Shown here: positions 7,011 through 27,460 of the stretch, one piece after another
Position numbering within the stretch: the first letter of the stretch is position 1
How the letters are laid out: each line of letters opens with the position of its first letter
Assembly (NCBI GenBank): GCA_040003695.1
Contig: JBDUCB010000332.1
Location: forward strand, 1-33,568
Reading direction: 5' to 3'
DNA length: 33,568 bases
Source: a bacterium
GTDB taxonomy: Bacteria; Acidobacteriota; Blastocatellia; Pyrinomonadales; Pyrinomonadaceae
The notes under the pieces: model-generated
Seen by the model: only the letters and a program-made list of their open reading frames with translations
The model's database searches: none
Told to the model about the DNA's origin: nothing
Translations under genes and position numbers: made by a program

Positions 7011-7868
7011 CTATCTGCCCGTCGCCGGCGGGTCAAGCTTGACGTGGAAGCGCAAGGGTCGGCCGACTAGGAGCAACTGGCGGCCACCATCGTGCGTGCG
7101 TGCTGCATAGACGCGCGCCTCGTGCCCGCCCTCCGAGAGTTGCGACGTGAAGAAGAGGAAACCGTGTCGTTCGTCGCTCAGGAGCTTGCCTGCGTACAAC
7201 TCCGGGCGCGGGTAGTCGGCTGCGCGCTGCTCGATGAAGCGGCCGTCAATGTAGAGGTGAACTTCGACGCGCTCCGCGGGCACGTCGCGATTGACTACCC
7301 AGCCGCGCACGATTTGTTGATTGGCATCTTCGAGCCAGCCGCGATAGAAAGGATCGGCCGGCAGCGCTTCGGAGCGGAAGCGAGCGGGCGTGCCCAGCAG
7401 TTGCAGCGTGCGCAGACGCCCGCCGAAACTCGCGTGCACGACATAGACGCGCGCTTCGTGCTCACCCGCCTCGAGCGGCGGCGTGTAGAAGAAGAAGCCG
7501 TGCCGGGCGTCGGCGGCAGCGCCCGCGGCGACGATGTCCGGGCGCGGATAATCGGCCGCACGACTGTCCGCGAAGCGGCCGTCAATGTAGAGCTGCACCT
7601 CGACGGGCGCGTCGGGCGCGCGCTGGTTCACGACCCAGCCCGCGACCTGCTCCGGCCCCGCCTCGTCGAGCGTGCCCTGAAAATACGGATCAAAGGCGCG
7701 ATAGTAGAACCCGACCGCGACGACGCCGACGAATAGCACGTCGAGCATCGACTTGACGATGAGAAAGTTGATCAGCCGCCGGAATGCTGGCGAAGTGTGA
7801 CCCGTGAACATGCTCGTGTTTTCGCTGCCGCGCGCAATGGTGGCCAAAATGCTGAGCGTGACTGGCAA
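7011..7868 (-). CDS. Hypothetical membrane-anchored protein with two tandem ~112-aa repeats
   Basis: One TM segment (LDVLFVGVVAVGFYY), then two homologous modules (GWVVN..VEV.LYIDGRF...RAADYPRP...RHGF.F...EARVY). Start is TTG 7868 or ATG 7811. More than 70% GC. Confidence 0.7.
   Translation of the reverse strand: MPVTLSILATIARGSENTSMFTGHTSPAFRRLINFLIVKSMLDVLFVGVVAVGFYYRAFDPYFQGTLDEAGPEQVAGWVVNQRAPDAPVEVQLYIDGRFADSRAADYPRPDIVAAGAAADARHGFFFYTPPLEAGEHEARVYVVHASFGGRLRTLQLLGTPARFRSEALPADPFYRGWLEDANQQIVRGWVVNRDVPAERVEVHLYIDGRFIEQRAADYPRPELYAGKLLSDERHGFLFFTSQLSEGGHEARVYAARTHDGGRQLLLVGRPLRFHVKLDPPATGR
7014..7691 (-). repeat. Intragenic tandem duplication (repeat A 7356-7691, repeat B 7014-7355)
   Basis: Residues 60-171 and 172-285 align end to end with no gaps and roughly half the positions identical. 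Confidence 0.75.
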
Positions 7869-11725: not shown

Positions 11726-14700
11726 TTGCCTCCCAGACTTTTTGAGAAAGCTGCTTACGTGACACAAATCACCTTCGCCGAAGAAATTCAGGGACGGCAA
11801 CAGAACGAGACCAGTTATAACCAGCCGTTGATAGCTGTAGGGCGCAACCCTGCGACCTGTCAGATTGTTTTTAATCAAAAACAATGGCCAACGGTTTCTC
11901 GGCAGCATGCTGAATTCCGGTTACAGAATGACCGCTGGTTGGTGTCAGACAGCGGTTCCACCTACGGTACATTTCTCGACGGGCAGCTGCTCAAAGAACC
12001 TGCGGCGCTAAGCGTGAATTCGCGAGTCCAATTCGGATCTGGTGGACCCGTCCTGGTGGTCATCAGAATGGGACAGAAAATGACGGGAATGGAAACGCTG
12101 GCGGAATCGCCCCGTCCATCTCCGTCGTTACCTCCTCGTCAAACATCAGCTTCACCAGCACCGAGTCTTCAATCAGCCCCACACAAGCAGCCTACTGGAA
12201 CAGCTCAGCGCAAGCCCGGCGAGCCTGCCTTTGCGGAATTGTCGGGTGCTGGAACGGGGAGCCTGAGGAGGATCGAACTCAACAAAGAACTCACTCGTTT
12301 CGGCCGCGATGCTGCGGTGGAGGGGGCAATTGACGCTGCCGCAGCGATGGTATCGCGCCGTCATGCCGAAATTCGAAGGCTGAATGGAAAGTACATACTG
12401 GTTGATCTTGGCAGCTTTAACGGAACGCTGCTTAACGGGCGGCGAATTGCCGCACCCGAGGTGCTCCAGCACGACGATAGAGTCGAACTGGGTTCTGGCG
12501 GTCCGACAATCCGGTTTGTTGATCCAGCTAACCCGGTGCCACGGCCGGCGCAGCAGCCTGCTCAATACGTTGATATCGTGGCCCCGGAATTGGTACCGGT
12601 GGTCTCAACTTCGAACAAGATGGGAACCATGGTGCTTGGTTCAGGGACGCCCCTGCAGATCAGCCATGCCAGTGTCGCGGATCGACCGCAGGTTTTTATT
12701 GAACAAGCATTTGGCAATAGCGGACAACTCACTATCGGCCGCAGCGAGGATTGCAATATTCGGCTCGATGGTCTCCTGATATCCAACCGGCATGCTTCGG
12801 TTTTTAATACCACTGCGGGTGTGGCGATCGAGGACCTGGGTTCATCAAACGGCACTTACATCAATGGCCAACGCATCACCGGTCGTAAATGGATCAAGCC
12901 GGAAGATCTGGTACAGATTGGCCCTTTTCTACTGAGAGTGCATCCGCAAAGGGGCGTCGCTGTCTTTGACAACCGGGCCAAGACGCGCATTGATGTTTTC
13001 CAGGTTACGAAGGAAGTACCAAACCGCTCAGGCCCAGGGAAGGTCAGGCTTTTAGACGAAGTGTGTTTGAGCATTCAGCCGAACGAGTTTGTCGGGATGC
13101 TGGGTCCATCGGGTGCCGGCAAGTCTACTCTAATGGACTCGCTCAACGGGATGCGCCCCGCATCTAGTGGCCAGGTTTTGGTGAACAATCTGGATCTTTA
13201 TCATCACCTCGAGTCGCTCAAGCAGTCGATCGGCTATGTGCCCCAGGACGATATCATTCACCGCGAATTGACTGTCTATAGCACGCTCTATTACGTGGCG
13301 CGCTTAAGACTGTCACGGGATATCTCGAGAAAAGAAATTAATCAGATCGTAGGTGAAGTGATGGACGTTACCGGACTTTCTGAACGGCGCGACGTTCCCA
13401 TCTCCCAACTTTCAGGCGGCCAACGCAAGCGTGTCTCCATCGCGGTGGAACTCATTACGAAACCGTCAGTCATCTTCCTCGACGAACCGACTTCCGGTCT
13501 CGACCCGGCGACAGAAGAAAAGGTCATGAAGCTTTTCCGCCAGATAGCCGAATCGGGCAGAACAGTAATTCTGACTACTCACGCGATGGAAAACGTCAAG
13601 CTCTTTGACAAGGTTGTTCTCCTGATGCGGGGCAAACTCGTCTTCTACGGTAAGCCATACGAGGCCCTCGCCCATGTGGGAGCTGAAAGCTTTAAAGACC
13701 TCTACGACAAATTGGAAGCGCCCATCAGTGAGCGCCTCGCAAAGACCAACGGGCAAATATCCAGGGAGCAGGCTGCTGAAGCAGTGGCGGAAGAATGGAA
13801 ACTCCGCTTCATGCAAACCGAGCAATTTGAAAGGAACGTCGCGGATCCGCTGACAGAAGTTTCGAGTACGCCGCGTCAGGCGGCGCCGGCGAAGCGGCGA
13901 ACAACACTTGGCGATTCGCTCCGACAGTGGGCCACGCTCTCGCGGCGGTATTTGGGCGTATTGGCCCGTGACAAGTTTAACCTACTCATACTTTTTGCTC
14001 AGGCGCCGATCATCGCGCTACTCACGTATTTGGTTGTTGGCGCTAACTCCCAGCGAGATTTCCCCTATTTTATCCTGGCGCTGGTTGCACTTTGGTTTGG
14101 CACATCTGTCGCTTCAAGAGAGGTCATTCGCGAACGGGCTGTCTATAACCGTGAGCGCATGGTCAATCTGCGGCTATTGCCTTACGTAGGTTTGAAACTT
14201 TTTGTGCTGATGATGATCGTGAGCTTTCAATGTCTTCTGCTCTTCGGCACGCTGAAACTGCTTGATGTTACAACGCTGATGAGTATGCCTGGTAAGTTTG
14301 GTGGCATTCCGCAACTGCTCGTCATGATTCTAACCGGGATGGTTGGTATCGCACTGGGTCTGTTTATTTCAGCAGTAGTAAAAACATCTGAGATGGCGAC
14401 GAGTCTTGTGCCGCTGATTTTGATACCACAGATTCTGTTCTGTGGCCTGGTTGGGGTTCCGGTTGGTTCGGCCAAAGTTGTCGGCGTCGTGATGCCGGCC
14501 ACTTGGTCATTTGATGAAATGAAACGTTTGTCAGGTCTCGATGTGCTGCGTGGTAAGGACGAGAATGCTCAGCCGGCCGCAAAGAATGAAGGGCGCGGGC
14601 TCTACAAGCAGATTGAACATGAGAACGATGCAAACATTGTGGATGCCAAGGCGAGAATCAACCAATACAAGTCCGACGCCGAAAAAGACTCAAAAGACTT

Positions 14701-14950
14701 TGAAAAGGCTATGGACCAATATCAGAAAGACCTCTTGAACAGAGGCTCTCCTACGAAACCAACTGCACCCAAACTCGGGCCTGCTCCGAAAATAGCTGAG
14801 GCAACTCGCATCCCAGACAATCTGAGCAATTCCGTCGATTTCTTACATCCATGGGGCGGACATTTGACCAATCTTGGAGTGCTCTTGACGATGCTCTTAA
14901 TCTTTCTCGGCGCTACCGGGATTGCTTTACGTGCTCAGGATATTGGCTAG
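11726..14950 (+). CDS. Triple-FHA domain, ABC ATPase and ABC-2 permease fusion (ABCG-type half transporter)
   Basis: Three FHA cores: VGRNPA..SRQHAEF..DSGSTYGTFLDG; FGRDAA..SRRHAEI..DLGSFNGTLLNG; IGRSEDC..SNRHASV..DLGSSNGTYING. Walker A GPSGAGKST, signature LSGGQRKR, Walker B IFLDEPTSGLD. Six predicted C-terminal TM segments. Start is ambiguous (TTG 11726 or GTG 11759). Confidence 0.92.
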   Translation: MPPRLFEKAAYVTQITFAEEIQGRQQNETSYNQPLIAVGRNPATCQIVFNQKQWPTVSRQHAEFRLQNDRWLVSDSGSTYGTFLDGQLLKEPAALSVNSRVQFGSGGPVLVVIRMGQKMTGMETLAESPRPSPSLPPRQTSASPAPSLQSAPHKQPTGTAQRKPGEPAFAELSGAGTGSLRRIELNKELTRFGRDAAVEGAIDAAAAMVSRRHAEIRRLNGKYILVDLGSFNGTLLNGRRIAAPEVLQHDDRVELGSGGPTIRFVDPANPVPRPAQQPAQYVDIVAPELVPVVSTSNKMGTMVLGSGTPLQISHASVADRPQVFIEQAFGNSGQLTIGRSEDCNIRLDGLLISNRHASVFNTTAGVAIEDLGSSNGTYINGQRITGRKWIKPEDLVQIGPFLLRVHPQRGVAVFDNRAKTRIDVFQVTKEVPNRSGPGKVRLLDEVCLSIQPNEFVGMLGPSGAGKSTLMDSLNGMRPASSGQVLVNNLDLYHHLESLKQSIGYVPQDDIIHRELTVYSTLYYVARLRLSRDISRKEINQIVGEVMDVTGLSERRDVPISQLSGGQRKRVSIAVELITKPSVIFLDEPTSGLDPATEEKVMKLFRQIAESGRTVILTTHAMENVKLFDKVVLLMRGKLVFYGKPYEALAHVGAESFKDLYDKLEAPISERLAKTNGQISREQAAEAVAEEWKLRFMQTEQFERNVADPLTEVSSTPRQAAPAKRRTTLGDSLRQWATLSRRYLGVLARDKFNLLILFAQAPIIALLTYLVVGANSQRDFPYFILALVALWFGTSVASREVIRERAVYNRERMVNLRLLPYVGLKLFVLMMIVSFQCLLLFGTLKLLDVTTLMSMPGKFGGIPQLLVMILTGMVGIALGLFISAVVKTSEMATSLVPLILIPQILFCGLVGVPVGSAKVVGVVMPATWSFDEMKRLSGLDVLRGKDENAQPAAKNEGRGLYKQIEHENDANIVDAKARINQYKSDAEKDSKDFEKAMDQYQKDLLNRGSPTKPTAPKLGPAPKIAEATRIPDNLSNSVDFLHPWGGHLTNLGVLLTMLLIFLGATGIALRAQDIG

Positions 14951-15311: not shown

Positions 15312-16103
15312 ATGTTACGAAGCTTAACTGTCCCAAAAGTCTTGATGCTTGCGTTTTGCGGCTTCGCGGCGTTGGCATTAGCCACAACTACAACGACCAT
15401 CCCCAGCGCCGCTGCCGACTTTACAGGGCGCGAGATTCTAAGCGTCAGTCGCATCGCGCATGGCGGTGCTGACTATGCCAACATGCAAAATGTCACGGTC
15501 CAGGCCAGCGGTTTTGTGAACGCGGCCGCGTTTGGGGGGATAGGCGCCAATCCGCTGGGTGCCATGGCGGAGGTAAGACTTAAGATTACGGATTATCAGG
15601 ATAAGCTGATGCGCCGGAGACTTGATGTGGCGCCTAGCGCAACTCTTCCGGGCCGAACCTATTTGGTCTTTACCGGATCGCAGGGCGGGGGAATGATCTT
15701 CGGTAACGAGTTTCGCGTAAGTGAGACTGCAGCTTCGCGTCACTGGGGCATGATGGGTTTCGACACTCTCAATCGGGCCATCGAGGGCCAACTCGTCACG
15801 GCGCGGCAGAGAGATGAAGGCAATGATTACGTGGTGGAAGTTAAGTTTAATCCCCAAGACACTGTGCGTTACTGGATTAACATGCAGACTTTCTTGATCG
15901 ATAAAATCTCTACGCGCTACAACAGCCAGGTCCTTATTGAAGAGGAACGCAGCGATTATCGCCGAGCCGATTGCATGATGTTGCCCTTCCACATTGTCAC
16001 GCGTCTGCAGGGCCAGCGTTTCGCCGATCTCGCGATCGAGAACTACGATTTAAAAAGCAGAGTTCCCGCGGCAACCTTCACCATCACCACGGTCACCCCG
16101 TAG
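15312..16103 (+). CDS. Secreted hypothetical protein, possibly a LolA-like / outer-membrane lipoprotein-sorting fold
   Basis: AGGAGGA at 15294-15300 and ATG at 15312. Signal peptide MLRSLTVPKVLMLAFCGFAALALA. The overall pattern (AHGG...; SDYRRADCMMLPFHIV; final FTIT) resembles LolA-like sorting proteins. This is a weak call by eye. Confidence 0.7.
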   Translation: MLRSLTVPKVLMLAFCGFAALALATTTTTIPSAAADFTGREILSVSRIAHGGADYANMQNVTVQASGFVNAAAFGGIGANPLGAMAEVRLKITDYQDKLMRRRLDVAPSATLPGRTYLVFTGSQGGGMIFGNEFRVSETAASRHWGMMGFDTLNRAIEGQLVTARQRDEGNDYVVEVKFNPQDTVRYWINMQTFLIDKISTRYNSQVLIEEERSDYRRADCMMLPFHIVTRLQGQRFADLAIENYDLKSRVPAATFTITTVTP

Positions 16104-16349
16104 GAGCGCACGGGCGGCAATTTTGACCAAACTGCGTTTATTGCCGGGGCGCCTCATCCTTTGGGTGGGCACCAAAAGAGTTGACTGAGACTAAGTGGAA
16201 GTCGTTGTTTTCTTCTTAGATAATCTTCGCATACGACCGGCGTTCCTTCTCCCCACTGTTCAAGTTAGTGTGCGCGTGGTCCGTGAGGGTACACGAAGCA
16301 AGGACTTTGTTTCGCGCAAACGTAAGGGGCGCAGTTTGTGAGGACAACC

Positions 16350-19300
16350 ATGAGGAATTACTGCCTAAGGATTAGCACCGTTGGTCGCTTGGGAATAGTG
16401 ATGACCGTGCTCATCGTCTTGGCAAGCAATATGTTCGCCCAAACTCCAACGCCGACTCCCGATCAGCGCGGCCTGGGAATCCAAAGCGCGGGTAATGCAA
16501 ATAATTCTCAGGCTGAACAACAAGCACGAGAGGCTAAGCCGGAACTCGTGCTCCAAACGGGCTACAACAATTTGTTTGGCGCGACCCGGCTGGTCTTCAG
16601 TCCTGATGGACGCTTGCTCGCCACGACTAGCTTCCGCAGCAGCACCATCAAACTTTGGGAGACGGCGACCGGCCGCGAGCTGCGCAATCTCTCGAGCGGC
16701 ACACAAAGCGTGATGGCGACGTCTTCATTTGTTACCTTCAGCCCGGACAGCCGGCTGATTGCAACCGCCGCCGGCGACAACTCGGTCAAAATCTGGGACG
16801 TAACGAGTGGGCGCGAGTTGCAAACACTCGCCGGGTCGCAGGGGTCTCTTGCTTCGTCATTGGGAGTTTATTTCATTGCGTTCGTTGGAAACGGTCAGAT
16901 AGTGACCATCAGCGACGCCATAAAAGTTTGGGACGTAGCGAGTGGGCAGGAGCTGCGCAACCTGGGCTCGACCGGCATAAGCGTCACCGGTCTCACAGGT
17001 GGCGAAGGCGGCGCGGCACTAAGCCCGGATGGTAATCAACTCGCCATCGTAGTTACAGACTCATCGCGACCTCAGGTTAAATTTTTCGATGTGACAAGGG
17101 GCGGCGAGTTAAAAACAATCGACCTGCCTGACAAGGAGCTTGACAGCGCCCAGATCTCTTTCATGTCTGATGGCCGGGTGCTTGCGGCTGGGATCGTAAA
17201 CAAGCAGCTAAAGCTCTGGGACTTGAATGCGAAAACGAGTGAGCGCGATTTAGGTCGGACCACCAACGAGTACACTCCCATTAAATTCAGTCGCGACGGT
17301 CGCCAGGTTGCAGTGGTTGAAGGCTACACGGTCAGACGTTGGGACACCGCGAGCGGACAGGAGTTGCCGGCATTGAAAGTGCCGAACGGCGGCCTGCTCG
17401 CAATGCAGACTGGAACGTTCGTTAGCTTCAGTGACGATGGGAGACGATTTGCCACCGGTGGCTTTGATACGCCCACTGTCATCTGGGATACGGAAACCAG
17501 CAAACAACTTCTCAAACTGAACGGCCGCACGAACATGGCCTACAAGGTCAACTTCAGCGCGGATGGTACTCAACTGTCTTCCGGCGGACGCACTCGGTGG
17601 GACCTGCGTGCGGGTCGTGGACTGAGAATCACCACCGCGCCTGCCGACAGGATGATCACACTGCCAAGTCCCGACGGCTGGTTGCTTGCGGCCTACAGTC
17701 TGAACAGCAACGCGGTTTCAATTCTCGAAACTGCTACCGGACGCCAACTGCAAACACTCGCTCCCGCATCGGGCCGCAGCGTTGTGCAGCGGGCCAGTTT
17801 CAGTCCTGACAGCACAATGATCGTGGTAACTTACGGTCCCAGCGCCGACGACTTACAAAAAACTTCCCGCGGCCCACAGTCAGCGATGAGTGATAGTCCG
17901 ACAAAGATCTGGGAAGTGAAGTCCGGACGCGAACTTTCTACTTTGATGATGGGCGCGAGCGCCAACGATGCGGGCTTCAGCTCTGACGGACGCGTGGTGG
18001 CAACGCTCAGCTCAATGGGAACAATCTCGCTTTGGGACACTGCATCAGGAAACAAGTTACGAGATCTGAGTACTTCACCAATCGACAAAATGACTTCAAT
18101 CGGAAGCCTTGGCAACCTCGGCTCTCCCGGTTCAATGAAACCTGGCAAATCCGGTTCGATGCCGACCATGCCAAACATGTCGAATATGCCGAACATGACG
18201 AACATGCCAAACATGGCGGACATGATCTCGATGATTACGAACATGATGGGCTCAATGTCTGCGGGCACGATGGGACGCAGTGTAACTTCGCTGGCGTTTA
18301 GTCCTGACGGCCGCATCCTCGCAACGGGCGGTGTTGAGTCAAAGTCGAATTTTGATCTCGCCGCTATGATGAACGGTGGGGCGAACCAACCGGGGCAAAA
18401 GAAATCAAAGAACAAACCTCCGCCAGACCCGCAAGATGTCATGAAGGATATGAAGGTCGAAGCGGTGGGCCAGGTAGTGCTCTGGGATGTGGCCAGCGGC
18501 CGCGAACTGGGAGCACTCAAGGGACACGGCAAGGGTGTTACTCGAGTCGCATTCAGTCGCGATGGCCGGCTACTCGCATCGAGCGGTAGCGACAACACAA
18601 TCAAGATTTGGGACGTGGCCACTCGCAGCGAGCTGCGCACACTCAAGGGCCATACAACCAATATTGATTCGCTCGACTTCAGCCCTGACTCACGCCTGCT
18701 CGCTTCAGCCAGCGACGACGGCTCGACTTTTTTGTGGGACACCAATACAGGCGAACATTTGGTGACGCTTATCTCCCTCGACGATGGTGGTGAATGGATG
18801 GTGGTCACGCCGCAGGGTCTGTTTGACGGTACGCCGGTTTCCTGGAACCAGATTCTTTGGCGCTACAACCAGGACACTTTCAACGTCGCGCCCATCGAGT
18901 GGTTCTTCAATGAGTTTTATTATCCCGGCTTACTTGCTGACATTCTCGCCGGCAAGCGACCGCATGTGGCCCAGGATGTTTCCAAAAAAGATCGGCGCCA
19001 GCCACTTGTGAAATTATCACTCATTTCGGAAACCCCTGCGGCAGGCGGCGCCGCAGCCGACCCGACGGGGATAACTTCGCGCACGGCCAAAGTAAAAATC
19101 GAAGTAACCGATGCGCCAGCCGACAAAGATCATCTACAGGGCAGCGGCGCGCGTGATGTGCGTTTGTTTCGCAACGGTTCGCTGATAAAGGTTTGGCACG
19201 GCGACGTATTAGATGGGAAACCCTCCGTCACCTTGGAGGAAGAGATTACCGTCACCGCCGGAATTAACCGTCTGACGGCGTACGCTTTCAACAAAGATAA

Positions 19301-20285
19301 CGTGAAGAGTAAAGACGCGCAGTTGCCGCTTACCGGTGCCGAAACCCTCAAGCGTGCCGGCACTGCTTACATAATTGCTATAGGCATAAATGAGTATGCG
19401 AATCCGCAGTACAACTTGAAGTATGCGACGGCCGATGCGCAGAGCTTCAGTGAAGAGGTACGTCTCAGGCAAACACAAGTCGGAGCCATCCAGCGCATCG
19501 AGGTAGTCCCACTCATCAACGAAAATGCGACGAAAGCAAACATCCTTTCTGCCCTGCGGCGACTATCCGGTGCGCCTGAGCAGCCTACTCTCAAAGCGGG
19601 TAGTCTTAGTAACCTGCAGCGCGCCCAGCCCGAGGATACGGTCATTATTTACTTCGCCGGTCATGGCACCGCGCAAGCTCAGCGCTTCTATCTTATCCCG
19701 CATGATCTTGGCTACACGGGTGACCGTACCAAACTCAATGAAGCGGGATTGCGCACCATACTCGCAAACAGCATCTCTGATGAAGAGTTAGAGCAAGCCG
19801 TTGAAGGTCTCGACGCCGGACACCTGTTGCTGGTGATCGACGCCTGCAACTCGGGACAGGCATTGGAGGCTGAGGAGAAGCGCCGCGGGCCAATGAATTC
19901 AAAAGGTCTGGCCCAGCTTGCGTACGAGAAGGGCATGTACATTCTCACCGCCGCACAGAGTTATCAGGCAGCACTTGAAACCGCACAACTCGGTCATGGG
20001 TTGCTGACCTATGCCCTGGTCGAGGAGGGGCTCAAGACACTGGTTGCGGATAGCGGACCGAAGGATGGCGTGGTGAATGTGCGGGAGTGGCTCGACTTCG
20101 CGACGGAGCGCGTGCCGCAGATGCAGGAAGAAAAAATGAAACAAGCGCGCGGTATCGGTCTCGAGATCGCTTTCATTGAGGGTGAGCAAAACATCGCCGA
20201 CCCGCAGAAACGCAGCGTCCAGCGTCCGCGTGTTTTTTATCGCCGCGAGTTAGAGGCCAATCCCCTGATCGTCGCGAAGCCGTAA
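16350..20285 (+). CDS. Signal peptide, 14 WD40 repeats, beta-sandwich linker and a C-terminal caspase-like (peptidase C14) domain
   Basis: GAGGA RBS then ATG 16350. N-terminus MRNYCLRISTVGRLGIVMTVLIVLASNMFAQ. There are 14 repeats of type FSPDGRLLAT...IKLWD..TGRE. C14 dyad: YFAGHG (His codon 19662-19664) and VIDACNSG (Cys codon 19845-19847). Confidence 0.93.
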   Translation: MRNYCLRISTVGRLGIVMTVLIVLASNMFAQTPTPTPDQRGLGIQSAGNANNSQAEQQAREAKPELVLQTGYNNLFGATRLVFSPDGRLLATTSFRSSTIKLWETATGRELRNLSSGTQSVMATSSFVTFSPDSRLIATAAGDNSVKIWDVTSGRELQTLAGSQGSLASSLGVYFIAFVGNGQIVTISDAIKVWDVASGQELRNLGSTGISVTGLTGGEGGAALSPDGNQLAIVVTDSSRPQVKFFDVTRGGELKTIDLPDKELDSAQISFMSDGRVLAAGIVNKQLKLWDLNAKTSERDLGRTTNEYTPIKFSRDGRQVAVVEGYTVRRWDTASGQELPALKVPNGGLLAMQTGTFVSFSDDGRRFATGGFDTPTVIWDTETSKQLLKLNGRTNMAYKVNFSADGTQLSSGGRTRWDLRAGRGLRITTAPADRMITLPSPDGWLLAAYSLNSNAVSILETATGRQLQTLAPASGRSVVQRASFSPDSTMIVVTYGPSADDLQKTSRGPQSAMSDSPTKIWEVKSGRELSTLMMGASANDAGFSSDGRVVATLSSMGTISLWDTASGNKLRDLSTSPIDKMTSIGSLGNLGSPGSMKPGKSGSMPTMPNMSNMPNMTNMPNMADMISMITNMMGSMSAGTMGRSVTSLAFSPDGRILATGGVESKSNFDLAAMMNGGANQPGQKKSKNKPPPDPQDVMKDMKVEAVGQVVLWDVASGRELGALKGHGKGVTRVAFSRDGRLLASSGSDNTIKIWDVATRSELRTLKGHTTNIDSLDFSPDSRLLASASDDGSTFLWDTNTGEHLVTLISLDDGGEWMVVTPQGLFDGTPVSWNQILWRYNQDTFNVAPIEWFFNEFYYPGLLADILAGKRPHVAQDVSKKDRRQPLVKLSLISETPAAGGAAADPTGITSRTAKVKIEVTDAPADKDHLQGSGARDVRLFRNGSLIKVWHGDVLDGKPSVTLEEEITVTAGINRLTAYAFNKDNVKSKDAQLPLTGAETLKRAGTAYIIAIGINEYANPQYNLKYATADAQSFSEEVRLRQTQVGAIQRIEVVPLINENATKANILSALRRLSGAPEQPTLKAGSLSNLQRAQPEDTVIIYFAGHGTAQAQRFYLIPHDLGYTGDRTKLNEAGLRTILANSISDEELEQAVEGLDAGHLLLVIDACNSGQALEAEEKRRGPMNSKGLAQLAYEKGMYILTAAQSYQAALETAQLGHGLLTYALVEEGLKTLVADSGPKDGVVNVREWLDFATERVPQMQEEKMKQARGIGLEIAFIEGEQNIADPQKRSVQRPRVFYRRELEANPLIVAKP
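18168..18221 (+). repeat. Three tandem 18-bp coding repeats (ATGCCRAACATGNCGRAY) encoding MPNM(S/T/A)(N/D)
   Basis: Units at 18168-18185, 18186-18203 and 18204-18221. They sit inside a Met-rich loop (18135-18272) of the WD40 protein. Confidence 0.85.
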
Positions 20286-25345: not shown

Positions 25346-25840
25346 ATGCACGCTTCCGCGATCAATATCATCTTGAGCTTTGCTGGCGCTCTCGTGCTTC
25401 ACGAAATGGGACACTTTCTTGCAGCTCGCGCTTGCTCTGTTCCCATCACCGAAGTGGGATTCGGTTGGGGCCCAAAGCTTTTTGGTTTCCGGGTTAATGG
25501 CGTTGACTATCAACTGCGTCTATTACCGCTCGGCGCCTATGTCCGGATGGACATGTCTGATTTACAGAAGCGTCCGCTGCTGCAACAGTTAATCGTCTTG
25601 CTGGCAGGCATTGCAGTGAATCTCATTCTCGCAGCCATCGCCTTGGGAACTTTCTTTGGTACTCTCAATCTCGTGCTGGCACTCGGTAATCTATTCCCGT
25701 TATACCAACAAGACGGATGGAAAAGCGGCATGGTGATCTTCCGTCGCGCCTTCAAGCGGCCCAGTCCACTCGTAGAATGGTCCTTCACGCTTTCTGCCGG
25801 ATTGGTCGGTTTGCTCCTACTTGTGCGCGCTCTCTTTTAG
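25346..25840 (+). CDS. Minimal site-2 protease (peptidase M50, RseP-like core, no PDZ domain)
   Basis: HEMGHFLAARACSVPITEVGFGWGPKLF...LRLLPLGAYVRM matches the RseP N-terminal HExxH region. NLFPLYQQDG corresponds to the NxxPxxxLDG motif. Only 164 aa with about 4 TM segments. Confidence 0.85.
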   Translation: MHASAINIILSFAGALVLHEMGHFLAARACSVPITEVGFGWGPKLFGFRVNGVDYQLRLLPLGAYVRMDMSDLQKRPLLQQLIVLLAGIAVNLILAAIALGTFFGTLNLVLALGNLFPLYQQDGWKSGMVIFRRAFKRPSPLVEWSFTLSAGLVGLLLLVRALF

Positions 25841-26194: not shown

Positions 26195-27460
26195 ATGGCA
26201 AGTGCCAACACTATTCTCTCCCAGAATTACAAATTTCTTGATCACAAAGCTGCATGGCTTGGCCTGTTGGCGATAACCCTTTTAGGTCTCGCGATCGTGA
26301 TTGCACCCGTTTGGATCATTCAACCATTCAAACCGCAGACTGCGCGCGGAGTGGAAGTCTCCTATGGGTTGCGCCGATGGTCACCGCTGGTGACTGTCAT
26401 CGCGGCGTCGGTTGCATTAATTCTCACTCTGTGGCTGTGGCGTAGCTTGCGCGGCTGGTGGCGAAAAGCGGTACTGGTATTAATCCTTGTACCTCTGCTG
26501 GCGTCCACCTGGTTCGCGCGCCAGAGCCAATTTGAGTGGATGTTTAATCCACTCGCCTATGCTACCTACGCAAAGACGAGCGCGGCGCAATTTGTTAATG
26601 ACGGCGACGTTGTTATGGCAGTTGAAAATAACGGCGAAGCCGCAGCTTATCCCGTTCGTCTGATGGCTTACCATCACCTGGTCCAAGACGTGGTTGGAGG
26701 CACGCCCATAGTCGCTACTTATTGAACGCTCTGTCACACCGGTCTGGTGTGGGAAACGACAGTAAACGGACGGCAACTTCACTTTCATCTTGCCGGAATC
26801 AATAACCAGAATTTCATCATGCGTGATGAAGAAACGGGCTCATGGTGGCAGCAGGTCACCGGCGAAGCTATCCAGGGGCCGCTCAAGGGCCAGCGCCTTC
26901 GTCCTGTTTTCCATGATGAGTTGACCTTCGGATTATGGAAGCGCGAGAAACCGGAGGGACGCGTGTTGCGACCCAACGAAGAGATTGCACGAGCAGGGAA
27001 GTATGCGCCGGCCAACTGGGAAGAACGAATGGACAAGGTGCCGGTTACAACGTCGGTTGCACTCGATAAATCTCTTGAACCCCGAACAATCGTAGTCGGT
27101 ATCACTGTTAACGGAATCTCAAAAGCATATCCATTCGACGCATTAGTCAAACAAAGTCTGATAATGGATGCCTTCGCCGGCAGTCCGATCTTAATCGTTA
27201 TCGGGGATGACAAGAAATCAGTTCGCGCCTTCGAAAGAATAGTAGGTGGACGCAAGCTGGAATTCTTTCTTAAACCGAATACCGCATCGCTAACTTTGCT
27301 TGATGCTGAAACAGGCAGCGAATGGGATTTCACTGGTAGGGCTGTCGCAGGCCCTCTCGGAGGGAAACAACTAAAGAAAGTCAGCGTGCTTAACGACTAT
27401 TGGTTCGACTGGACTACTTACCATCCGAACACAATCGTTTATGATCTTGGCCGCCGTTAA
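26195..27460 (+). CDS. Membrane-anchored DUF3179 protein with one in-frame TGA (26723-26725) at the first Cys of the conserved CxxC motif; either a selenoprotein or a pseudogene
   Basis: ORFs 26195-26725 and 26747-27460 share one frame. The junction reads GGTPIVATY*TLCHTGLVWE where the family has VTYCPLCGSG. Downstream, FIMRDEETGSWWQQVTGEAIQGPLKG is also typical of the family. Confidence 0.8.
26731..26762 (+). promoter_or_regulatory. SECIS-like stem-loop directly downstream of the in-frame UGA
   Basis: Upper stem CACACC (26735-26740) pairs with GGUGUG (26746-26751), with apical loop GGUCU. Lower stem CUGU (26731-26734) pairs with ACAG (26759-26762). The structure begins 5 nt after the UGA. 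Confidence 0.3.

Follow-up and report, generated by a model that had tools for sequence, protein, structure and literature searches.

The stretch of DNA analysed here (the window) comprises positions 1 to 33,568 of contig JBDUCB010000332.1 (GenBank assembly GCA_040003695.1), from a bacterium of the Pyrinomonadaceae (Acidobacteriota), and the gene considered lies at 16350-20285 on its forward strand. The open reading frame (ORF) listed for this region (16338..20285, +) opens with a GTG, but a Shine-Dalgarno-like GAGGA, read from the sequence, is located 5 nt before the ATG at 16350, and this ATG is therefore the preferred start. The product of 1311 amino acids (aa) begins with a signal peptide and a Pro/Thr-rich linker; 14 WD40 blades follow, then a conserved linker, an Ig/FnIII-like beta-sandwich and, at the C-terminus, a Peptidase_C14 (caspase-like) domain (Table 1). 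It is one ordinary member of a large, uncharacterised family that is common in soil Acidobacteria, and we regard it as a likely protease of the cell envelope. Scans for promoters and terminators around the gene gave results no better than shuffled controls.

Table 1. Features of the WD40-caspase gene and its product (nucleotide positions in the window)
Feature	Position	Strand	Basis
Shine-Dalgarno-like GAGGA	16340..16344	+	read from sequence
Signal peptide, aa 1-30, predicted signal peptidase I cut A30/Q31	16350..16439	+	hydrophobicity, charge, ortholog conservation
Pro/Thr-rich linker, aa 31-62, with D-(Q/K)-R-G-(L/I)-G, ending in REAKPELVLQ	16440..16535	+	ortholog N-termini, alignment consensus
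First WD40 propeller (modelled), blades 1-7, aa ~63-389	16536..17516	+	Pfam, AlphaFold2 (28 strands), Foldseek
Second WD40 propeller (modelled), blades 8-14, aa ~390-815	17517..18794	+	Pfam, AlphaFold2, Foldseek
Met-rich insertion between blades 11 and 12, aa 577-637	18078..18260	+	Tandem Repeats Finder, AlphaFold2, orthologs
Conserved linker, aa 816-905, EWMVVTPQGLFDGTP...WRY...FNVAPIEWFFNEFYYPGLLA...KKDRRQP	18795..19064	+	near-invariant alignment columns
Ig/FnIII-like beta-sandwich (modelled), aa ~906-1000	19065..19349	+	AlphaFold2 (seven strands), Foldseek
Peptidase_C14 (caspase-like) domain, aa 1001-1311	19350..20282	+	PF00656, invariant columns
Predicted catalytic His1105 codon	19662..19664	+	YFAGHG motif
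Predicted catalytic Cys1166 codon	19845..19847	+	IDACNSG motif
Stop codon	20283..20285	+	ORF listing

The C-terminal domain can be assigned to family C14 by profile comparison. Scanned alone, the C-terminal 309 aa match PF00656 (Peptidase_C14) over aa 1009-1227 with 44.8 bits (gathering cut-off 21.4, E=1.6e-11), and the clan-mate Pfam families CHAT and C13 give weaker matches. The intact His/Cys dyad, proposed in an earlier note made from the sequence of the window, holds up: YFAGH1105G and IDAC1166NSG are both present, and both motifs are near-invariant across the family. In an AlphaFold2 (AF2) model, His1105 follows the strand VIIYFAG and Cys1166 the strand LLLVID, placing first His and then Cys at the C-terminal end of a sheet strand, and the modelled order of secondary structure elements, beta1-alpha1-beta2-alpha2-beta3(His)-alpha3-beta4(Cys), is that expected for a caspase-type domain. 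Furthermore, Asp1029 and Asp1164 (two residues before the catalytic Cys) are invariant in the family alignment. The non-caspase C14 enzymes so far characterised all prefer a basic P1 residue (Arg/Lys) owing to an acidic pocket (PMC5756287). Together with the two invariant Asp residues, this leads to the prediction of Arg/Lys specificity, and by analogy a basic P1 residue is probably preferred. The family also has two invariant dibasic motifs: D881-R-R-Q-P just ahead of the Ig domain and K1177-R-R-G-P, 11 residues past the catalytic Cys, the latter forming part of the invariant loop K1177-R-R-G-P-M-N-S of the caspase domain. The orthocaspase MaOC1 requires autoprocessing (PMC5756287); if the enzyme is Arg/Lys-specific, the dibasic motifs could by analogy be candidate autoprocessing sites, although a structural role is just as possible.

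When one genome per GTDB species was scanned, 475 stretches were found to encode such a protein, and all ortholog analyses use the best 80 of these loci. They come from metagenome-assembled genomes of Pyrinomonadaceae, Blastocatellia or Acidobacteriota, are 77-87% identical over the C-terminal module, and encode full-length proteins of ~1270-1330 aa (ORFs read through). The N-terminus of the window protein has the anatomy of a Sec-type signal peptide. Its n-region, MRNYCLRISTVGR, has a net charge of +3, its h-region, LGIVMTVLIVLA, is 12 residues long with a mean Kyte-Doolittle value of 2.97, and the c-region SNMFA/QTPTP has Ala at -1 and Met at -3. The orthologs preserve this pattern: 72 of the 73 full-length N-termini start with Met and basic residues, continue with a hydrophobic core (12-residue mean 2.0-3.3) and end in a site of the type (A/V)-x-(A/G/S) followed by Gln. 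All 72 have Ala (51), Gly (16) or Ser (5) at -1, and 54 have Ala (31) or Val (23) at -3, with Thr or Leu in the others. The Gln after the cut is invariant and is followed by a P/T/S-rich linker, the D(Q/K)RG(L/I)G motif and REAKPELVLQTGYNN; the part of the linker inside the AF2 model (aa 56-62) has a predicted local distance difference test score (pLDDT) below 50. The signal-peptide residues are the least conserved part of the protein (64% identity to the closest relative, GCA_025452075.1, versus 90% overall), as is typical of signal peptides. Judged by charge, core length, the -1 residue and conservation in orthologs, the N-terminus thus qualifies as a predicted Sec signal peptide. The window protein is very probably exported, in line with the suggestion of the earlier note that it is exported or membrane-anchored, and the basic n-region, hydrophobic core and MFA-Q cleavage-like site on which this suggestion was based are confirmed as features of the sequence.

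No other 19-residue window of the protein reaches a hydropathy of 1.6, i.e., no further hydrophobic segment was found, and the first 83 aa match no Pfam family. A lipoprotein could be ruled out for the window protein, which has no lipobox and no Cys at +1, as could a substrate of the twin-arginine translocation (Tat) pathway, since there is no twin-arginine motif. The only cysteines are C5, located within the signal peptide, and the catalytic C1166, so that the mature part contains a single Cys; the same is true for 57 of the 72 orthologs. A lone catalytic Cys in the mature protein is consistent with a thiol enzyme that is active in a compartment which is oxidising and contains DsbA.

The region between the signal peptide and the C-terminal module contains 14 FSPDG-type motifs with a spacing of ~42-50 aa, except at two insertions. 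Many Pfam families of the WD40 / beta-propeller type match across aa ~80-810, most strongly at aa 707-810, and blades 13-14 are the most canonical WD40 repeats. The AF2 model of aa 56-820 (39 sequences, pLDDT 74.3) has 56 strands arranged in fours and one extra strand. Its best Foldseek matches in the PDB are tandem WD40 proteins, namely the 14-repeat Nostoc protein 2YMU, Utp12/13/21, Pwp2 and the WD region of Apaf-1, with E-values from 1e-35 to 1e-23 across ~750-810 columns. The count of 14 blades given in the earlier note, enough for two seven-bladed propellers, therefore agrees with the motifs, the strands and the structural matches; the model supports fourteen blades forming two propellers, and we infer from it that they are split 7+7.

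The second predicted propeller carries a Met-rich insertion, with 15 Met in 70 aa. The first part of this insertion is encoded by an in-frame 9-nt tandem repeat, ATGCCGAAC (7.3 copies, 18159-18224, Tandem Repeats Finder), which is translated as (M-P/S/T-N)n and is disordered in the AF2 model. The second part, MADMISMITNMMGSMSAGTMG, is conserved in orthologs with the pattern MADMxxMxTNMMGxMSAGTMG and is modelled as helical. Among the orthologs whose loop could be delimited, the loop is 61-89 aa long and contains 9-16 Met, and this variation in length suggests that the copy number of the 9-nt repeat may change by slippage. Longer members of the wider family repeatedly contain similar helical inserts rich in Met, Lys and Glu. 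The insert could bind clients through a hydrophobic surface, bind Cu(I) or serve as a sink for oxidants.

Between the propellers and the caspase domain (aa 806-1003) no Pfam family was matched. The conserved linker consists of near-invariant columns in the alignment and in diverse representatives of the family, and is poorly modelled. The AF2 model of aa 806-1311 was built from only 34 sequences sharing at least 67% identity, a shallow alignment, and has a pLDDT of 62.6 overall, with values of 82-93 for a seven-stranded beta-sandwich at aa ~912-996. Foldseek matches this sandwich to FnIII (3pe9), SoxZ (2ox5), the alpha2-macroglobulin MG domain (2p9r) and Ig domains (TMt 0.56-0.67, prob 1.0), so what had been described as a beta-rich spacer is now modelled as an Ig/FnIII-like sandwich.

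Proteins of this type are numerous. A search with the C-terminal 507 aa returned >900 homologs, the top ones being 75-88% identical and, where named, annotated as 'caspase family protein [Pyrinomonadaceae bacterium]'; some homologs bear the JGI auto-label 'dipeptidyl aminopeptidase/acylaminoacyl peptidase'. An exhaustive HMMER search using just the caspase domain retrieved 15,118 cluster representatives with E<=1e-3, of which 1,568 have E<=1e-30. Among the best 150, almost all are 1000-1700 aa long with the caspase match at the extreme C-terminus. The caspase domain is C-terminal in 139 of 149 representatives, [FY]AGHG is present in 127 of them and IDACNSG in 113. A basic-hydrophobic N-terminus was found in 107 of the 136 representatives of at least 1000 aa (~79%), 77 of them with an AxA/Q-type site and six with a lipobox Cys; most of the other representatives begin inside a WD repeat and are truncated gene calls. 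In many representatives the first blade, which starts with '(K/R)PELVxQTGH', follows directly on the cleavage site. Across clusters, the linker, Ig-like domain and caspase domain that make up the C-terminal module are 53-70% identical, with DGLFDGSP, FNEFYxPGLLA, DRRQP, RLFRNGSL, AYAFNxDN, AGHG, IDACNSGQALEAEEKRRGPMNSKGLAQLAYEKG and QRPRVFYRRE as near-invariant stretches, whereas the blades vary in number and sequence. All 22 diverse family members examined match PF00656 (best E=4.3e-14). The named members belong to Pyrinomonadaceae, Terriglobia and Acidobacteriota, and one to Gemmatimonadales. The propeller-first, caspase-last architecture is thus not unusual in sequence space but is that of a very large family already auto-annotated as 'caspase family protein'.

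Two kinds of relatives deviate at their ends. In P0294, P0300, P0305, P0309 and P0356 a lipobox Cys replaces the AxA/Q site, and these proteins are predicted to be lipoprotein propeller-caspases. P0243 has a 340-aa beta-rich extension past the caspase domain (residues ~1195-1536, ending in ...LQKARAF), which might anchor the protein in the outer membrane or result from an artefactual gene fusion; a Pfam scan of this extension gave no match, and the suspicion of an outer-membrane barrel was not supported.

The gene evolves as an ordinary chromosomal gene. In about 40 of the 80 Pyrinomonadaceae-type genomes, the ortholog adjoins a purine-catabolism-like cluster, with an NCS2-type permease gene upstream and genes for xanthine-dehydrogenase-like molybdenum (Mo), iron-sulphur (FeS) and FAD subunits together with an allantoinase-like gene downstream; the genome containing the window is rearranged at this place. 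This synteny is stable, without an obvious functional link. In the same genome pairs, the WD-caspases are 66% identical, the FAD subunits and the allantoinase-like proteins 66-68%, and the Mo subunits and permeases 81-85%. With orthologs in at least 80 species, the WD-caspase gene is vertically inherited and evolves at an ordinary rate.

We consider it likely that this protein is a Sec-exported multi-domain C14 (clan CD, caspase/metacaspase/orthocaspase fold) cysteine endopeptidase that works in the cell envelope of Pyrinomonadaceae-type bacteria, as a periplasmic or an envelope-attached enzyme, with its propellers and Ig-like domain recruiting substrates or partners. The signal peptide would direct Sec translocation and be removed by signal peptidase I between A30 and Q31, giving a mature protein of ~1280 aa with two seven-bladed propellers, the linker, the Ig-like sandwich and the C-terminal caspase domain. 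The propellers, along with the conserved Met-rich helix of propeller 2, would serve as a platform binding substrates or partners, and the His1105/Cys1166 dyad would cleave the bound polypeptides, most likely after Arg or Lys. The role of the enzyme would most likely be constitutive envelope proteolysis, in which polypeptides of the envelope or imported ones are processed, turned over or scavenged, and not that of a cell-death or immune switch.

Several observations weigh against this interpretation. The profile check recommended in the earlier note matched both Peptidase_C14 and WD40, but the structure prediction recommended there succeeded only in part: the propellers and the Ig domain were modelled, whereas the second half of the caspase domain has a pLDDT <50, and Foldseek gave Ig-like matches only and none to a caspase. 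A profile search of the PDB found Yca1 and TbMCA2 weakly (E~0.5-0.8), with only the His motif aligned, and an hhalign comparison of the family profile with a caspase-3 sequence covered only 22 columns and was not significant. Asp1029 and Asp1164 may be equivalent to the acidic S1 pocket residues of metacaspases such as TbMCA2, a likeness that we draw from a comparison of motifs and not from an alignment. The signal peptide was judged by n/h/c-region rules and by its conservation in orthologs. Finally, the gene neighbourhood gives no functional hint.

The export signal itself allows a variant of this picture, which we regard as unlikely, in which the hydrophobic segment is an uncleaved signal anchor tethering the protein to the inner membrane, with the catalytic body in the periplasm and a lipid tether in the lipobox relatives. 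Met at -3 is atypical for signal peptidase I and a poor residue for this enzyme. Moreover, the six lipobox-containing representatives indicate that membrane tethering is used in the wider family, and a long flexible P/T-rich linker after the hydrophobic segment is what one sees in tethered proteins. However, an h-region of ~12 residues is short for a transmembrane helix, and the small residue at -1, the preponderance of Ala or Val at -3 and the invariant Gln in 72 of 73 orthologs form the pattern of a cleaved signal.

The earlier note read the protein as an envelope-located, ligand-triggered protease next to a 'LolA-like' secreted protein. Spelled out as a sensor-protease whose propellers sense a ligand and switch on the caspase, acting with this neighbour in conflict or cell death, this reading is in our opinion improbable. 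The ligand sensors of Apaf-1 are WD40 propellers, and the Apaf-1 WD region is among the tandem propellers matched by our model; nevertheless, the window protein contains no NACHT, NB-ARC or AAA domain in Pfam scans, and no P-loop family is among the Pfam and NCBIfam matches to any of its parts. The caspase domain does match defence-associated caspase models weakly, but the NCBIfam model caspase_w_EACC1 (caspase, EACC1-associated type) reaches 52 bits against a cut-off of 140, and the PADLOC 'caspase' model (37-43 bits) recognises only the generic domain. The supposed partner, encoded at 15312-16103 (+), is a 263-aa protein with a signal peptide of its own (MLRSLTVPKVLMLAFCGFAALALA...). Its gene stands between those of an FHA-ABC protein and the WD-caspase in the closest relative too (WD-caspase 90% identical), where synteny breaks downstream. 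The 263-aa protein is 98% identical there, while the DNA is just 88% identical, which implies strong purifying selection on it. Yet it matches no Pfam or NCBIfam family, LolA included, and no PDB sequence, and tblastn found no homolog within 10 kb at any of the 80 orthologous loci, so that the adjacency is kept solely in this 90%-identical relative. Conflict genes are sporadic or hypervariable, whereas the WD-caspase gene has a stable chromosomal context and evolves like a housekeeping gene. With no NTPase switch, no membership in a defence system and an ordinary evolutionary rate, 'ligand-triggered' finds no support. A cytoplasmic NLR-like conflict protein is ruled out by the missing NTPase, the conserved signal peptide, the absence of a PADLOC system and the ordinary divergence.

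Clan-CD enzymes include transamidases and the sortase PorU of the type IX secretion system (T9SS), and a C-terminal module kept extremely well beside varying propellers would suit fixed chemistry with varied clients, but a transpeptidase or sorting enzyme (cf. PorU, GPI8 and legumain-type ligases), which would cut a signal off envelope proteins and join them to another molecule, or else a catalytically silent scaffold, is very improbable. The surroundings of the gene encode neither a partner nor a substrate motif or sorting system, C14 and not C25 or C13 gives the best profile match, and the intact dyad argues against a silent scaffold.

The proposed envelope endopeptidase may be compared with several known systems. 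A survey published in 2012 found WD40 to be the commonest partner of prokaryotic caspase homologs and N-terminal transmembrane helices or signal peptides in 15% of these homologs (PMC3501461). The orthocaspases, such as MaOC1 of Microcystis aeruginosa and the WD40-bearing ones of Trichodesmium and Gloeobacter, likewise have a Peptidase_C14 domain with a His-Cys dyad and with Asp two positions ahead of the catalytic Cys (D-x-C-x-S-G), often occur as fusions with WD40 repeats and are expected to accept a basic P1 residue. However, their accessory domains commonly lie on the C-terminal side of the p20 domain (PMC5756287), whereas in the window protein the caspase domain (aa 1001-1311) lies at the extreme C-terminus and the accessory domains are N-terminal to it. 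The window protein differs furthermore in its conserved signal peptide, its family-specific linker, its Ig-like domain and the motif DACNSG in place of the usual orthocaspase D(A/S/C)CHSG. What the earlier note said of the reverse domain order is partly supported: the order does differ from that described for orthocaspases in the review literature, but the partnership with WD40 and the presence of N-terminal signals have been known since 2012 (PMC3501461).

Caspase-type proteases combined with tandem WD40 propellers also occur in the caspase-NACHT/NB-ARC-WD40 STAND (NLR-like) proteins and, in a similar way, in Apaf-1. These proteins are cytoplasmic and have an N-terminal effector, whereas the window protein possesses its effector at the C-terminus, has no NTPase switch, is predicted to be exported, is inherited vertically at an ordinary rate and matches no defence system. 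In layout, though by analogy only, the protein resembles the S9 peptidases (prolyl oligopeptidase and dipeptidyl peptidases, DPP), Tricorn and TolB, which have one or more N-terminal propellers, a C-terminal catalytic domain and a location in the envelope or periplasm. A shared logic, in which the propeller selects or gates substrates, is plausible; the catalytic domain of the window protein, however, has the predicted caspase fold with a Cys-His dyad and not an alpha/beta-hydrolase Ser triad. Gingipains and PorU (C25) as well as clostripain and PmC11 (C11) are clan-CD cysteine proteases too; like the enzyme predicted here they are exported, cut after Arg/Lys and carry Ig-like domains as appendages, but they belong to other families than C14, use other secretion signals (the C-terminal domain, CTD, of the T9SS), and none has WD40 propellers. 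The family is therefore distinct in four ways, namely its propeller-first order, its conserved export signal, its dedicated linker and Ig module and its invariant DACNSG...EEKRRGPMNS region. In the part of the open-access literature searched, we found neither a characterised exported WD40-caspase nor a description of this family, and the earlier note, too, knew of no characterised example.

More speculatively, and with considerable doubt, the envelope endopeptidase proposed here could represent a class of envelope proteases of the Acidobacteriota and Gemmatimonadota that has yet to be described. In this class, a caspase-fold enzyme of the periplasm with Arg/Lys specificity would be fed by a tandem propeller, whose Met-rich helix would trap unfolded or hydrophobic polypeptides or else bind Cu(I), and the enzyme would mature by autoprocessing at RR/Q (882-884) and RR/G (1178-1180). 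If so, it would be the caspase-fold counterpart of the DegP, Tricorn and prolyl-oligopeptidase machines and would give this fold a mainstream housekeeping role outside the cytoplasm. To our knowledge, the caspase homologs of bacteria are almost always treated as cytoplasmic effectors of cell death or immunity. Should export and activity both be borne out, a considerable part of the prokaryotic "caspases" would be ordinary envelope proteases, which would temper the evolutionary arguments that tie bacterial caspase homologs to programmed cell death, and the family would offer a way into how Acidobacteria scavenge proteins and into their poorly known envelope biology. In genome annotation, a family model of their own would be merited by the conserved linker and by the module of Ig and C-terminal caspase domains.

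The window as a whole is ordinary chromosome. It encodes, besides the proteins mentioned, Rrf2, an rpoD-like sigma-70 factor, a GGDEF response regulator, a TonB_C-TPR protein, a 3xFHA-ABC transporter, OsmC, a SCO4226-like protein, a Ser/Thr kinase-TPR protein, LysR, an esterase and an FG-GAP/ASPIC protein. The FHA-ABC protein (11726-14950, +) is a polypeptide of 1074 aa that combines three FHA domains with an ABC ATPase and an ABC-2 permease, and looks like a phospho-threonine-regulated exporter; beside the same genes in the closest relative it is 91% identical.

Two other places contain possibly damaged genes. The adjacent ORFs at 26195-26725 and 26747-27460 (both +) match consecutive parts of DUF3179 (profile positions 11-64 and 74-292), which suggests that a gene is frameshifted or interrupted here, or that the sequence contains an error. 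The ORF at 25346-25840 (+, 164 aa) matches just the first 100 of the 221 positions of Peptidase_M50 (site-2 protease) and may be a truncated gene or a wrongly called ORF. Finally, a GC-rich patch at 7011-7868 (-; 66% GC versus ~52% for the window) encodes a membrane-anchored protein of 285 aa with no Pfam match, which is internally duplicated: the series GWVVN...VEVxLYIDGRF...RAADYPRP...RHGFxFxT...GxHEARVY occurs in it twice.

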